Assembly (NCBI RefSeq): GCF_053078305.1
Contig: NZ_CP166879.1
Length of the DNA: 64,000 bases
Strand: one strand, 5' to 3'
The notes below the pieces were generated by a model that saw only the letters and a list, made by a program, of their open reading frames with translations, had not been told where the DNA came from and ran no database searches. How positions within the stretch are numbered: position 1 is the first letter of the stretch; the number at the start of each line of letters is the position of its first letter. Of this stretch, positions 26,484 through 44,965 are shown piece by piece. Made by a program: the position numbers and the translations under genes.

Positions 26484-26580
26484 GTTATGTGTTCTTTAAA
26501 AATAAGGAAATGTTTGAATTTAGTTGGTAGATTGTTGATGTGGAATAAATTTGTTTAAAAACAGATATGTATGCTTAGTG
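26484..26580 (+). promoter_or_regulatory. CRISPR leader (AT-rich) between cas2 and the first repeat
   Basis: 97-bp AT-rich stretch ending ...AACAGATATGTATGCTTAGT directly before the first repeat. Confidence 0.8.
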
Positions 26581-27579
26581 TGTTCCCCGCGCCAGCGGGG
26601 ATAAACCGGGGGGGCAATAATATGTGCGGCGGATCACCAGGTGTTCCCCGCGCCAGCGGGGATAAACCGTCGGAAAAATGGCTGGCCTCAACGGTGAAAA
26701 CGTGTTCCCCGCGCCAGCGGGGATAAACCGCCAGGGTGAAACTTTTCGCTGACGTAAATAAAGTGTTCCCCGCGCCAGCGGGGATAAACCGACAATCACA
26801 TATACGACGCGAGACGGAGATCGGTGTTCCCCGCGCCAGCGGGGATAAACCGTGATGGGCGAATACAAGCGCTGGCGCAACGAGGTGTTCCCCGCGCCAG
26901 CGGGGATAAACCCGGCATTCTTAACCGGCGCAACAAGGGGGGCGCGTGTTCCCCGCGCCAGCGGGGATAAACCGGTTAACTCCAGGTGGCGCGGCAGTGT
27001 TCAGAAGTGTTCCCCGCGCCAGCGGGGATAAACCGTGCTCTCATTTGTGTCGGCATCACTCGCGTCGGTGTTCCCCGCGCCAGCGGGGATAAACCGTCTG
27101 CCGCGAGCTGGTCTACGCCTACGCCATGGTGTTCCCCGCGCCAGCGGGGATAAACCGACATATGCCACAACCAGGCGAAGAAAAGTGTTCCCCGCGCCAG
27201 CGGGGATAAACCGCCCGTCACCGACGCGCAGTGGCGCTACCGTGAGTGTTCCCCGCGCCAGCGGGGATAAACCGGTCGCTGGGTTATTTTGTGTTGTGGG
27301 GCGATCGTGTTCCCCGCGCCAGCGGGGATAAACCGCTCATATTCGGATTGATCGTGTGTTTCGGTTTGTGTTCCCCGCGCCAGCGGGGATAAACCTGCGT
27401 ATATCTGTTGATGCGCACGGCGTGGCGGGTGTTCCCCGCGCCAGCGGGGATAAACCGAATGATTTAATACCAGACGCAGAGTGCCACACGTGTTCCCCGC
27501 GCCAGCGGGGATAAACCGGGCGCACTGGATGCGATGATGGATATCACTTAGAATTCCCCGCCCCTGCGGTAGAACACCC
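26581..27579 (+). CRISPR. cas-proximal CRISPR array (type I-E): 16 intact repeats plus 1 degenerate terminal repeat, 16 spacers
   Basis: Repeat GTGTTCCCCGCGCCAGCGGGGATAAACCG starting at 26581, 26642, 26702, 26763, 26824, 26885, 26946, 27007, 27068, 27129, 27185, 27246, 27307, 27368, 27429, 27490; degenerate GAATTCCCCGCCCCTGCGGTAGAACACCC at 27551-27579. Confidence 0.97.
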
Positions 27580-39927: not shown

Positions 39928-41354
39928 TGGCATTTGATGATTTACGCAGCTTTTTACAGGCGCTTGATGACCACGGCCAGTTACTGAAAATCAGCGAAGA
40001 GGTGAACGCGGAACCGGATCTGGCTGCCGCTGCCAACGCCACCGGGCGTATCGGCGATGGTGCACCGGCGCTGTGGTTTGATAATATTCGCGGTTTTACC
40101 GATGCCCGCGTGGCGATGAATACCATCGGTTCCTGGCAGAACCACGCGATTTCCTTGGGCCTGCCGCCAAACACCCCGGTTAAAAAACAGATTGATGAGT
40201 TTATCCGCCGCTGGGATAACTTCCCGATTGCCCCGGAGCGCCGCGCCAATCCAGCCTGGGCGCAGAACACCGTCGATGGTGACGAGATTAATCTGTTCGA
40301 TATCCTGCCGCTGTTTCGTTTAAACGACGGTGATGGCGGTTTCTATCTCGACAAAGCGTGCGTGGTTTCCCGCGATCCGCTCGACCCGGATAACTTCGGC
40401 AAGCAGAACGTCGGCATCTACCGCATGGAAGTGAAGGGCAAGCGTAAGCTCGGCCTGCAACCGGTGCCGATGCACGATATCGCCCTGCATCTGCATAAAG
40501 CAGAAGAGCGCGGTGAAGATCTACCGATTGCGATCACGCTCGGTAACGATCCGATCATCACGCTGATGGGCGCAACGCCACTGAAATACGATCAATCTGA
40601 GTACGAAATGGCAGGCGCGCTGCGTGAAAGCTCGTACCCGATCGCCACCGCCCCGCTGACCGGTTTTGATGTGCCGTGGGGTTCAGAAGTGATCCTCGAA
40701 GGGGTCATCGAAAGCCGTAAACGCGAAATCGAGGGGCCGTTCGGTGAGTTTACCGGACACTACTCCGGCGGGCGTAACATGACCGTGGTGCGCATCGATA
40801 AAGTCTCTTACCGCACCAGGCCGATTTTCGAATCGCTGTACCTCGGCATGCCGTGGACCGAAATCGACTACCTGATGGGGCCAGCCACCTGTGTGCCGCT
40901 GTATCAGCAACTGAAAGCCGAGTTCCCGGAAGTGCAGGCGGTAAACGCCATGTACACCCACGGCCTGCTGGCGATTATCTCCACCAAAAAACGCTACGGC
41001 GGCTTTGCCCGCGCGGTGGGCCTGCGTGCGATGACCACGCCGCACGGTCTGGGCTACGTAAAGATGGTGATTATGGTCGATGAAGACGTTGACCCGTTCA
41101 ACCTGCCGCAGGTGATGTGGGCGCTCTCCTCGAAAGTAAATCCGGCAGGGGATTTGGTGCAGTTGCCGAATATGTCCGTGCTGGAACTCGACCCAGGCTC
41201 AAGCCCGGCGGGGATCACCGACAAGCTGATTATCGACGCCACCACGCCTGTCGCCCCGGACAACCGTGGTCACTACAGCCAGCCGGTGGTGGATTTGCCG
41301 GAAACCAAAGCCTGGGCTGAAAAACTGACCGCTATGCTGGCCGCACGTAAATAA
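39927..41354 (+). CDS. ecdC: UbiD-family hydroxyaromatic acid decarboxylase (C subunit, YclC-like)
   Basis: 475-aa ORF with UbiD-family character; start overlaps the upstream stop. Confidence 0.85.
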   Translation: MAFDDLRSFLQALDDHGQLLKISEEVNAEPDLAAAANATGRIGDGAPALWFDNIRGFTDARVAMNTIGSWQNHAISLGLPPNTPVKKQIDEFIRRWDNFPIAPERRANPAWAQNTVDGDEINLFDILPLFRLNDGDGGFYLDKACVVSRDPLDPDNFGKQNVGIYRMEVKGKRKLGLQPVPMHDIALHLHKAEERGEDLPIAITLGNDPIITLMGATPLKYDQSEYEMAGALRESSYPIATAPLTGFDVPWGSEVILEGVIESRKREIEGPFGEFTGHYSGGRNMTVVRIDKVSYRTRPIFESLYLGMPWTEIDYLMGPATCVPLYQQLKAEFPEVQAVNAMYTHGLLAIISTKKRYGGFARAVGLRAMTTPHGLGYVKMVIMVDEDVDPFNLPQVMWALSSKVNPAGDLVQLPNMSVLELDPGSSPAGITDKLIIDATTPVAPDNRGHYSQPVVDLPETKAWAEKLTAMLAARK

Positions 41355-41364
41355 GGAGAACAAG

Positions 41365-41601
41365 ATGATTTGTCCACGTTGTGCCGATGAACAGATTGAA
41401 GTGATGGCGAAATCGCCGGTGAAAGATGTCTGGACGGTATATCAGTGCCAGCATTGCCTTTATACCTGGCGCGATACCGAACCGCTGCGCCGTACCAGCC
41501 GCGAACATTATCCCGAAGCGTTCCGCATGACGCAGAAAGATATTGATGACGCGCCAATGGTGCCGAGCATCCCGCCGCTGCTGGCGGAAGGTAAGCGCTA
41601 A
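41365..41601 (+). CDS. ecdD: Small Cys-rich decarboxylase D subunit (YclD-like)
   Basis: 78-aa ORF with CPRC...CQHC zinc-ribbon-like motif; follows the UbiD gene. Confidence 0.75.
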   Translation: MICPRCADEQIEVMAKSPVKDVWTVYQCQHCLYTWRDTEPLRRTSREHYPEAFRMTQKDIDDAPMVPSIPPLLAEGKR

Positions 41602-41609
41602 TAAAAAGT

Positions 41610-41637
41610 GCCGGGTAGTGGCTTTGCTTTACCCGGC
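41610..41637. terminator. Putative bidirectional terminator hairpin between convergent ecdD and pphB
   Basis: GCCGGGTA...TACCCGGC 8-bp perfect stem, A-run upstream and T-rich downstream. Confidence 0.4.
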
Positions 41638-41641
41638 CTCA

Positions 41642-42298
41642 TTACTTTATTTTATAAAATGACAGCCGCCCGCTTTTCGGCGATCCGGTATCAATATAAA
41701 TCTGGTTAGCGAACGTCTGAATGTTATCAAACATCATATGTCCAAATATAAAATAATCAGCGCCGTTTATTTGTTGTAACTCGCCATTAAGCGATTTCTG
41801 CACACGATCAACAGGCCAGAGTAATTCGCTCTCCGCTATTTCTTTACCAAAGAGATATTCACTCCCCGGATAATCTGCATGTGCGATGACATATTTTATG
41901 TTGTCGTTAGTGATTTCAATAATATGTGGAAGGTGATGGAATTTCAGCAACAGATCTGTAGCTTCTTTTTGCTCTGAATCATTTAAATCGAAAAACCAGT
42001 CACCACCGCTGGCAAGCCACATATTGCCATCGCCGGTCGCGAACGCATCCAGCGCCATTGCTTCGTGGTTGCCTTTAACGGAGATAAACCAGGGCTGGTT
42101 TAGCAGGCGCAGGACGTTAAGACTCTCCGGCCCACGATCAATATTATCGCCGACAGAAATAAGTAAGTCGGTTTCGGGGAAAAAAGAGAGTTGATGTAAG
42201 CGGGATTGTAATAACTGATATTCACCATGAATATCACCAACGACCCATATATGGCGATAGTGATGGGCATTGATTTTTTGATAGCGTGTAGATGGCAT
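41642..42298 (-). CDS. pphB: Serine/threonine protein phosphatase 2
   Basis: 218-aa ORF with calcineurin-like metallophosphatase motifs (GDIHG, GNHE). Confidence 0.9.
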   Translation of the reverse strand: MPSTRYQKINAHHYRHIWVVGDIHGEYQLLQSRLHQLSFFPETDLLISVGDNIDRGPESLNVLRLLNQPWFISVKGNHEAMALDAFATGDGNMWLASGGDWFFDLNDSEQKEATDLLLKFHHLPHIIEITNDNIKYVIAHADYPGSEYLFGKEIAESELLWPVDRVQKSLNGELQQINGADYFIFGHMMFDNIQTFANQIYIDTGSPKSGRLSFYKIK

Positions 42299-42403
42299 GG
42301 TTTTACCCTGTAAAATAAGCTTTCCTATTATACAGGGTATTTTTATTTGATTCGTCAGCTGTAGATAATATTCCCGATAGTATTTTTCTACCGGGAATTA
42401 TAA

Positions 42404-44965
42404 TTACACCAGACTCTTCAAGCGATAAATCCACTCCAGCGCCTGACGCGGGGTGAGTGAATCCGGATCGAGGTTTTCCAGTGCCTCGACAGCAGGCGAG
42501 GTTTCTTCCGGTACGGACAGCAAAGACATTTGCGTACCATCCACTTGTGTAGCGGCGGCGTTCGGCGAAATGCTCTCCAGCTCACGCAGTTTCTGCCGCG
42601 CGCGTTTGATCACCTCTTTTGGCACGCCCGCAAGGGCTGCAACCGCCAGGCCGTAGCTTTTGCTCGCCGCGCCATCCTGCACGCTATGCATAAAGGCAAT
42701 GGTGTCGCCGTGCTCCAGTGCATCGAGATGCACGTTGGCGACGCCTTCCATTTTCTCCGGTAACTGGGTCAGCTCGAAATAGTGGGTAGCAAACAGCGTC
42801 AACGCTTTAATCTTATTCGCCAGATTTTCCGCGCACGCCCACGCCAGCGACAGACCATCGTAAGTGGAAGTTCCGCGCCCAATCTCATCCATCAGCACCA
42901 GACTGTACTCGGTGGCGTTATGCAGAATATTAGCGGTTTCGGTCATCTCCACCATAAAGGTTGAACGCCCGGAAGCCAGATCATCCGCTGCCCCTACGCG
43001 GGTAAAGATACGGTCAATCGGGCCAATCTCGACTTTTTGTGCCGGTACATAGCTGCCGATGTAGGCCATCAACGCAATCAGTGCGGTCTGGCGCATATAG
43101 GTACTTTTACCGCCCATGTTCGGGCCGGTAATAATCAACATCCGGCGCTGCGGTGACAGATTCAGCGGGTTGGCGATAAATGGCTCGTTCAGCACCTGTT
43201 CAACCACCGGATGGCGGCCTTCGGTAATGCGAATGCCCGGTTTATCAATAAAGGTCGGGCAGGTGTAGTTCAGGGTATAGGCCCGTTCCGCCAGGTTCAC
43301 CAGCACGTCGAGTTCCGCCAGCGCGCTCGCGCTCTGTTGCAACGCTTCCAGATGCGGCAACAGCAGGTCGAACAACTCTTCATAAAGCTGTTTTTCCAGT
43401 GCCAGTGCTTTGCCTTTTGAGGTGAGAACTTTATCTTCGTACTCTTTTAGCTCTGGAATGATGTAGCGCTCGGCGTTTTTCAGCGTCTGGCGACGCATGT
43501 AGTTGATGGGTGCCAGATGGCTTTGCCCACGGCTGATTTGAATGTAGTAGCCGTGCACCGCATTAAAGCCAACTTTCAGCGTGTCCAGGCCGGTACGTTC
43601 ACGCTCGCGGACTTCCAGACGCTCCAGATAATCGGTCGCGCCGTCAGCCAGCGCGCGCCACTCATCCAGCTCTTCGTTATAGCCCGATGCGATAACACCA
43701 CCGTCGCGTACCAGCACCGGCGGTGTGTCGATGATTGCTCGCTCCAGCAGATCGCGCAGCTCGGCAAACTCGCCCATCTTCTCACGTAGCGCCTGTACCG
43801 GTGCACTATCGACAGTTTCTAACTGCGCACGCAGCTCCGGCAGTTGCTGGAAAGCGTGGCGCATACGGGCCAGATCGCGTGGGCGAGCAGTTCGTAAAGC
43901 CAGACGTGCCAGAATACGTTCCAGGTCGCCGACCTGACGCAGTACCGGCTGTAGCCCGGCGGTGAAATCCTGCAATGCGCCAATAGTTTGCTGGCGCTCA
44001 AGCAACACGCGGGTATCGCGCACTGGCATATGCAGCCAGCGTTTCAGCATACGGCTGCCCATCGGCGTGACGGTGCAGTCGAGCACAGAAGCCAGCGTAT
44101 TTTCCGCACCACCCGCCAGGTTCTGGGTGATTTCCAGATTACGACGCGTCGCGGCATCCATAATGATGCTGTCCTGCTCACGTTCCATGGTGATGGAACG
44201 AATATGCGGCAGAGTCGTACGTTGGGTATCTTTCGCATACTGCAACAGACAACCGGCAGCACAAAGTCCGCGCGGCGCGTTCTCGACGCCAAAACCGACC
44301 AGATCGCGGGTCCCAAATTGCAGATTCAACTGCTGGCGCGCGGTGTCGATTTCAAACTCCCACAGCGGGCGACGGCGCAGGCCGCGACGGCCTTCAATTA
44401 ACGACATTTCAGCAAAATCTTCTGCATACAGCAGTTCCGCAGGATTAGTGCGTTGCAGTTCTGCCGCCATCGTTTCCCGGTCAGCCGGTTCGCTCAGGCG
44501 AAAACGCCCGGAACTGATATCCAGCGTCGCGTAGCCGAAACCTTTGCTGTCCTGCCAGATAGCCGCCAGCAGGTTGTCCTGACGCTCCTGCAACAGGGCT
44601 TCATCGCTGATGGTGCCTGGCGTAACGATACGCACAACTTTGCGCTCAACCGGACCTTTGCTGGTCGCCGGATCGCCAATTTGTTCGCAGATGGCAACGG
44701 ACTCACCCTGATTCACCAGTTTGGCGAGGTAGTTTTCCACCGCATGGTAGGGAATCCCCGCCATCGGGATCGGCTCTCCCGCCGAAGCACCGCGTTTGGT
44801 CAGTGAAATATCCAGCAGTTGCGACGCGCGTTTTGCGTCGTCATAAAACAGTTCATAAAAATCACCCATCCGGTAAAACAGCAGGATCTCGGGATGCTGG
44901 GCTTTCAGCTTGAGATACTGCTGCATCATGGGCGTATGGGCGTCGAAATTTTCTATTGCACTCAT
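42404..44965 (-). CDS. mutS: DNA mismatch repair protein MutS
   Basis: 853-aa ORF; Walker [10 protein letters not shown]; full length. Confidence 0.97.

Follow-up and report, generated by a model that had tools for sequence, protein, structure and literature searches.

What is a hairpin with a run of T's doing in the spacer between mutS and pphB, when both genes are read in the direction opposite to that in which it resembles a terminator? The question comes from an original prediction on 64,000 nucleotides of an E. coli genome (all of it, at full length, here called the window), which described a terminator-like hairpin at 42305-42349, antisense to its neighbors, and offered that it might end an antisense transcript or be a structural element of the pphB 5' untranslated region. 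The neighbors were correctly named: mutS (42404-44965, stop codon 42406-42404) and pphB (41642-42298, ATG at 42298-42296) both lie on the - strand, and they are parted by a 105-nt spacer of 31% GC. The GC content of pphB is 42.5%, against 56.6% for mutS. Convergent with pphB, a hydroxyarylic acid decarboxylase B-C-D operon ends at 41601 on the + strand; K-12 carries ygbI where the window strain has this operon. The 301 nt around the hairpin are 100% identical in O157:H7 strain TR01 and 90-95% identical in most other complete genomes. A mechanically called 43-aa reading frame spanning the spacer (42303-42434, - strand) is unsupported and was disregarded. Elsewhere in the window, at 26580-27485, there is a CRISPR array of at least 14 repeats of GTGTTCCCCGCGCCAGCGGGGATAAACCG with a period of 61 nt and one 117-nt spacing gap; we take the repeat to resemble that of the E. 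coli type I-E system.

Both the hairpin and the T-run are present in the sequence as originally described. On the + strand, ACCCTGTA (42305-42312) pairs with TACAGGGT (42331-42338), ATTTTTATTTG comes next at 42339-42349, and a ninth pair, T42304-A42339, extends the 8-bp stem, so that the hairpin, which we term HP2, occupies 42304-42339. Read on the - strand, which is the sense strand of both genes, HP2 consists of a 5' arm UACCCUGUA (42339-42331), an inner stem of AAUAGG and CUUAUU around the loop AAAG, and a 3' arm UACAGGGUA (42312-42304). The long loop of the original prediction is accurate for the outer stem, but the loop is not an open one, as on the - strand it holds this 6-bp inner stem and its 4-nt loop. 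The - strand fold reaches -18.3 kcal/mol (z = -4.6, with 0 of 200 shuffles as good) and the + strand fold -14.5 kcal/mol (z = -2.9, 1 of 200 shuffles as good), the latter being weaker because the place of a G-U pair in the - strand RNA is taken by an A-C mismatch in the + strand RNA. Taken alone, an inverted repeat of 8 bp is nothing unusual: allowing loops of up to 30 nt, the 64-kb window contains about 59 perfect seeds, against about 28 in Markov simulations. That HP2 is more than a chance palindrome is partly borne out by its fold z-score and conservation and by the tail score and rank discussed below.

Several familiar kinds of element were considered and set aside. A scan of 41000-43500 against Rfam 15 at E <= 10 returned no match on HP2 and two chance-level matches elsewhere. 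A repeated, REP-like element is rejected, the sequence occurring once per genome (median 1 place). The LexA consensus is CTGT-N8-ACAG, and the CTGT and ACAG found in the arms of HP2 are spaced by 20 nt, not 8 nt, which rejects a LexA box; an operator for a dimeric repressor is unlikely with arm centers about 26 bp apart. Known RNA thermometers are much less stable than -18 kcal/mol, and at that value HP2 seems too stable to be one.

At an identity of at least 95%, 5204 of 5426 complete E. coli genomes carry HP2 as a single copy. Its stems are almost invariant among 10 sequences drawn from E. coli lineages, E. albertii, Escherichia sp., and Citrobacter and Pseudocitrobacter records, and its loop takes the forms AAAG, AAAT, AGCG, TGGTT and GAGAG. 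The sense fold is the more stable of the two strands in all 10. The stem substitutions are less telling: two favor the sense RNA (a G-C to G-U change in E. albertii and the conserved inner G-U pair) and two the antisense RNA (U-A to C-A in K-12-type sequences and A-U to A-C in one Escherichia sp.), too few changes, split 2 to 2, for a covariation test of the strand in these 10 sequences. One single-strain variant (L022) has a G-to-A change that breaks a stem pair, and in E. coli strain 158274-3 (L024, ~1540-2380) an IS1A copy sits inside the 5' arm of HP2 with a 9-bp target duplication, CCCTGTATA, parting the A-rich tract that precedes the hairpin on the sense strand from the hairpin itself.

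Published transcript maps of K-12 bear directly on the function of HP2. The K-12 spacer carries the same hairpin with one flanking base different (the base 5' of the stem is C, not U), and the two sequences are related by K-12 coordinate = 2859753 - (window position - 42305), the K-12 + strand being the window - strand. SMRT-Cappable-seq lists a forward transcript of b2733 (mutS) with a start site (TSS) at 2857024 and a termination site (TTS) at 2859753, marked 'novelTTS' (Yan et al., 2018; PMC6131387, Supplementary Data 1). This TTS falls on the T that closes ...TACAGGGT, where pairing in the 8-bp stem ends, and corresponds to window position 42305 on the - strand. The TSS is supported by 246 reads; the TTS is where 23 reads stop, a further 4 stop no more than 50 bp past it, and 10 carry on into pphB, with a median 3' extension of 375 bp (PMC6131387). 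The method adds and then trims poly(A) (PMC6131387), and since the genome continues with AAAA, the actual K-12 end is somewhere from 2859753 to 2859757. The operon table contains b2733 and b2733|b2734, both from 2857024, and no separate start for pphB, which appears there only in the transcript from the mutS promoter (PMC6131387); the searchable tables of that study hold no other TSS or TTS within 2859600-2860599.

A Rho signal lies at about the same place. A Rho termination region classed as 'orphan' is reported at 2859755 on the K-12 + strand (Adams et al., 2021; PMC7815308, Supplementary file 2), with a Rho score of 4.54 (p 2.7e-10); reads upstream and downstream number 71 and 39 without bicyclomycin (BCM), an inhibitor of Rho, and 69 and 172 with it. 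This coordinate is approximate because the Rho score uses 800-nt windows (PMC7815308). Taken with the TTS at 2859753 (up to 2859757), it puts the equivalent of the K-12 mutS mRNA 3' end at 42301-42305 on the - strand of the window. The mapping of 3' ends had been named as the check on the antisense terminator, and the searchable K-12 tables list a sense end at the base of HP2 and no antisense end there.

We therefore consider it probable that HP2 acts in the sense RNA as the 3'-terminal stem-loop of the mutS mRNA, at a Rho-dependent site, and not as an antisense terminator. We propose that RNA polymerase, on its way out of mutS, passes through the AT-rich spacer of 105 nt and copies HP2 into RNA; having no U tract on the sense strand, the hairpin would not by itself release the polymerase. 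The 3' arm would hide the pphB ribosome-binding site, so that the C-rich start of pphB would stay largely untranslated; Rho would load onto this untranslated RNA and terminate within pphB, and 3'-to-5' exonucleases would trim the RNA back to the base of HP2, leaving a sharp and stable 3' end. A minority of transcripts would go on to form the mutS-pphB co-transcript. K-12 data record directly that the RNA ends at the hairpin base, what fraction reads through and that the region is sensitive to BCM; the trimming step, the location of the Rho loading site and the link to blocked translation we infer. We likewise infer that the K-12 data carry over to the window strain, whose hairpin is identical bar one flanking base.

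The sequence features on the sense strand are in keeping with this proposal. The stem is followed by AAAACCAUG, whose tail score of 1.54 amounts to no U tract, so that the form of an intrinsic terminator is missing in the direction of mutS and pphB, while the sense fold is strong in both strains (-17.0 kcal/mol in K-12, -18.3 in the window). Just downstream, the C-rich, G-poor beginning of pphB (42141-42300, - strand) is a candidate Rho loading (rut) region: in 80-nt windows over 42340-42141 the sense-strand C/G ratio is 1.4-2.75, and %C-%G over the pphB start peaks at 17.5, where the 95th and 99th percentiles of the window are 13.75 and 18.75. Rho-terminated E. coli transcripts have been found to possess precise steady-state 3' ends right after stable stem-loops, which are not followed by U-rich sequence, guard against PNPase and RNase II, and have C>G enrichment downstream (Dar and Sorek, 2018; PMC6061677). 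In HP2 we find the same arrangement, with a K-12 3' end (TTS 2859753, ambiguous by up to 4 nt through A-trimming) just after a stable stem-loop lacking a U tract, with more read-through on Rho inhibition in the published K-12 data, at a resolution bounded by the 800-nt windows, and with C exceeding G downstream. The AT-rich pphB gene and its H-NS-bound spacer also fit the usual setting of Rho silencing, which is that of AT-rich, H-NS-bound acquired genes. The alternative offered by the original prediction, a structural element of the pphB 5' untranslated region, came nearer the data in invoking a sense RNA structure, but what the K-12 experiments show is this structure at the 3' end of the mutS mRNA, in a Rho-sensitive region, and not as a leader of a pphB transcript of its own.

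Some observations pull against a role at the mutS 3' end. All transcript data come from K-12, whose neighbor beyond pphB is ygbI and not the decarboxylase operon, and both coordinates carry the uncertainties given above. In the curated Term-seq list of Adams et al., mutS, pphB and ygbI are missing and no coordinate on either strand starts with 28596 or 28597 (PMC7815308), so this list places no 3' end here. An upstream A tract is atypical of the stem-loops of Dar and Sorek, the stem substitutions among relatives are evenly divided between the strands, and the strong + strand T-run has no explanation in a sense role, except as AT-rich DNA upstream of a promoter.

A second hairpin lies closer to mutS. 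HP1 (42370-42398, - strand), with a stem of 11 bp, starts 5 nt beyond the stop codon of mutS, and the U tract behind it is poor (tail score 2.69 in the window, 2.36 in K-12). Its fold (42360-42410) is -17.6 kcal/mol, with a z-score of -4.6, and E. albertii has one compensatory pair change in it (U-A to A-U); the searchable K-12 SMRT-Cappable-seq tables contain no TTS at HP1. The 7-nt loop (42381-42387) reads AAAAATA here, TCTTTTG in most E. coli and CAAAATG in E. albertii. The window loop agrees with the common loop at 1 of 7 positions when the latter is read directly, and at 5 of 7 when it is reverse-complemented (CAAAAGA), which looks like lineage-specific flipping of the loop. A comparison of the window with a typical O157:H7 genome gives differences at 12 of the 105 bases of the spacer and 14 of the final 396 of mutS, against 1 of 399 in pphB, and this unevenness suggests a recombination patch at the mutS 3' end.

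The best surviving alternative, though we think it unlikely, is close to what was first claimed, that HP2 is a + strand intrinsic terminator that halts antisense transcripts crossing pphB before they reach mutS; such transcripts would originate either in the decarboxylase operon, which converges on pphB, or at spurious promoters within the AT-rich pphB gene, and the role could coexist with one in the sense RNA. The form is there: a 9-bp stem with 4 G-C pairs (-13.7 to -14.5 kcal/mol) is followed by UUUUUAUUU, and the T-run TTTTTATTTG (42340-42349) is on the sense strand the A-rich tract AAAUAAAAA ahead of HP2. The tail score of this run, 5.38, is reached by 0.02% of window positions, and in our own d'Aubenton-Carafa-type scan the hairpin and tail have a d score of 17.6 and come 12th among the 1332 terminator-like sites that the window yields over its two strands, level with the terminator of pphB (rank 13). 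The built-in terminator scan had missed HP2 because its loop limit is 8 nt. Given this high score the description 'terminator-like' was a fair one. The T-run is kept in 10 of 10 Escherichia-type sequences, and antisense RNA over pphB exists in K-12.

Several observations speak against the antisense terminator. No + strand gene ends near HP2, which therefore does not lie shortly downstream of a transcription unit on its own strand; the nearest + strand stop, at 41601, lies 703 nt upstream, and a separate hairpin (41610-41637) follows it. On the - strand, where it has a good U tract, that structure (about 41608-41638, GCCGGGTA...TACCCGGC) is the pphB terminator of rank 13; on the + strand its U tract is weaker and its rank 26, and it is probably a bidirectional terminator for the convergent decarboxylase D and pphB genes. 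In K-12, antisense RNA meets a second Rho region at 2860217 on the - strand, antisense to pphB (score 5.9; PMC7815308), equivalent to about 41841 on the window + strand and some 460 nt before HP2. The searchable K-12 supplementary tables of Adams et al. and Yan et al. list no 3' end on the reverse strand at coordinates that start with 28596 or 28597; antisense RNA may be too scarce at HP2 in K-12 because Rho acts upstream. The + strand fold, besides being the weaker one in the window, falls to -7.7 kcal/mol in E. albertii. Finally, the A/T tract is kept upstream of pphB in Salmonella (L018) and Klebsiella (L020), both of which lack the hairpin, so the T-run may simply be promoter-upstream DNA. 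Of the antisense claim, then, the terminator-like sequence stands and the searchable K-12 tables show no antisense 3' end at it, though HP2 might conceivably serve as a backstop for antisense RNA.

Somewhat less probable, and in our judgment doubtful, is that the conserved feature is DNA, namely the promoter of pphB, with its TATAAT (42332-42327) and H-NS-bound AT-rich tract, together with the ribosome-binding site, the inverted repeat being incidental. The 5' half of HP2 does contain a perfect sigma-70 -10 hexamer on the - strand (TATAAT, 42327-42332), 28 nt before the pphB ATG, which makes it a candidate pphB promoter, and a TATAAT box at 28-32 nt before the ATG is also present in E. albertii, E. 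marmotae-like loci, Salmonella and Superficieibacter, in several cases as TGnTATAAT; the box is kept across five genera or clades, hairpin-less loci included. Genomic SELEX also places a site for the RpoD holoenzyme and one for H-NS in the mutS>pphB spacer (Shimada et al., 2014; PMC3946193), and the variable hairpin loop would on this account be the discriminator and start-site region, normally free to vary. The hexamer of the window, however, lacks a usable -35 element, and its TG abuts the hexamer and is not spaced as in TGnTATAAT. A promoter scan found no -35 match and no - strand promoter in the spacer, and the searchable tables of SMRT-Cappable-seq, Kim et al. (2012) and Cappable-seq, which are possibly incomplete, list no pphB TSS. 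Nor does a promoter account for an RNA 3' end mapped to the hairpin base, and a complementarity of 9 + 6 bp (z -4.6) exceeds the need of two independent motifs.

Promoter and hairpin may also be combined. The likely Shine-Dalgarno sequence of pphB, AGGG (42306-42309, - strand), lies 7 nt before the ATG and within the 3' arm of HP2 (Salmonella has TATAGGAAC at this position). We entertain, with no more confidence than we give the DNA-only account, a dual-use 'transcript-origin switch', in which the 5' arm is the pphB -10 box, the 3' arm is the ribosome-binding site and the + strand U tract also stops antisense polymerases. RNA arriving from mutS would have both arms, fold, hide the ribosome-binding site, go untranslated and be passed to Rho, while RNA from the pphB promoter would begin inside the loop, without the 5' arm, and therefore could not form the strong hairpin. 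Fold computations suggest that HP2 could tell read-through from promoter-derived RNA in this way: the unpaired probability of the Shine-Dalgarno is about 0 in read-through RNA, and in RNA started 6-9 nt after TATAAT a structure of -4.1 kcal/mol replaces the strong hairpin, with the GGG still weakly paired (unpaired 0.01-0.36).

Least credible is that HP2 is a chance palindrome without function in an AT-rich spacer and the K-12 end merely the point where exonucleases stall. For it, chance alone yields about 28 such repeats per window, one strain has a broken stem pair and another has IS1 in the 5' arm without loss of the locus; against it, both arms barely change across 5204 genomes or in the E. 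albertii, Citrobacter and Pseudocitrobacter records, the loop and the linker between the two hairpins do vary, and the fold z-score is -4.6.

The locus is arranged differently in more distant relatives. A PphB peptide scan of the genome collection gave 6 close loci, and more distant ones were reached through protein homologues. In E. marmotae-like and cryptic-clade Escherichia, mutS and pphB are separated by an additional gene of 177 aa, which is divergent from pphB (L008, 926-1459; L017, 1375-1908; also L013) and has no Pfam match; these loci lack the pphB hairpin, and their mutS gene has a classical terminator, CCCGACGG...CCGTCGGG and then TTTATT. In Salmonella, pphB is not downstream of mutS. 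A Superficieibacter sp. (L019, ~1960-2000) has an unrelated 7-bp hairpin, CTCACCT...AGGTGAG, right after its TGATATAAT box; it covers the pphB ribosome-binding site, in a layout like that of E. coli and with a different sequence. In Klebsiella spallanzanii (L020) the pphB module sits between mutS and the decarboxylase operon, with 50-aa Hok/Gef toxin genes on both sides of the pphB homologue (1534-1686 and 2736-2888), an arrangement that hints at a mobile module.

We conclude that HP2 is real and conserved, and that its best-supported role is an ordinary one, most likely that of the mutS mRNA 3'-end stem-loop at a leaky Rho-dependent boundary with pphB. The K-12 end is already in a published supplementary table; the element itself is undescribed. 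While its practical value is modest, a role at the mutS 3' end accounts for how a mismatch-repair gene could obtain a defined, stable mRNA end without a classical terminator, and for how a horizontally acquired, H-NS-bound phosphatase gene, pphB, could be kept mostly silent with low-level co-transcription. It is also a caution for scans that work from sequence alone, as a hairpin with a T-run on one strand can be conserved for the sake of the other strand.

HP2 shares traits with three known kinds of structure. Bidirectional intrinsic terminators consist of a hairpin and a U tract, with an A tract upstream. Like canonical and bidirectional terminators, HP2 has on its + strand a G-C-containing stem followed by UUUUUAUUU, with a score equal to that of the pphB terminator; it differs from them in having no gene ahead of it on that strand and no + strand 3' end in the searchable K-12 tables and, from the bidirectional ones, in lacking a sense U tract and in lying between tandem rather than convergent genes. 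It is also similar to leader hairpins that sequester a ribosome-binding site, in that its 3' arm holds the probable pphB Shine-Dalgarno, fully paired in read-through RNA, but unlike sequestering leaders and RNA thermometers it has no evident ligand or temperature logic and matches no Rfam family. The protective stem-loops of Rho-terminated transcripts show no association with an upstream A tract (Dar and Sorek, 2018; PMC6061677), and HP2 departs from them by the A-rich tract ahead of it and by its overlap with the -10 box and ribosome-binding site of the next gene. It is nevertheless to these that HP2 bears the likeness, in its stability, its lack of a sense U tract, the 3' end at its base, BCM-sensitive read-through and the excess of C over G downstream.
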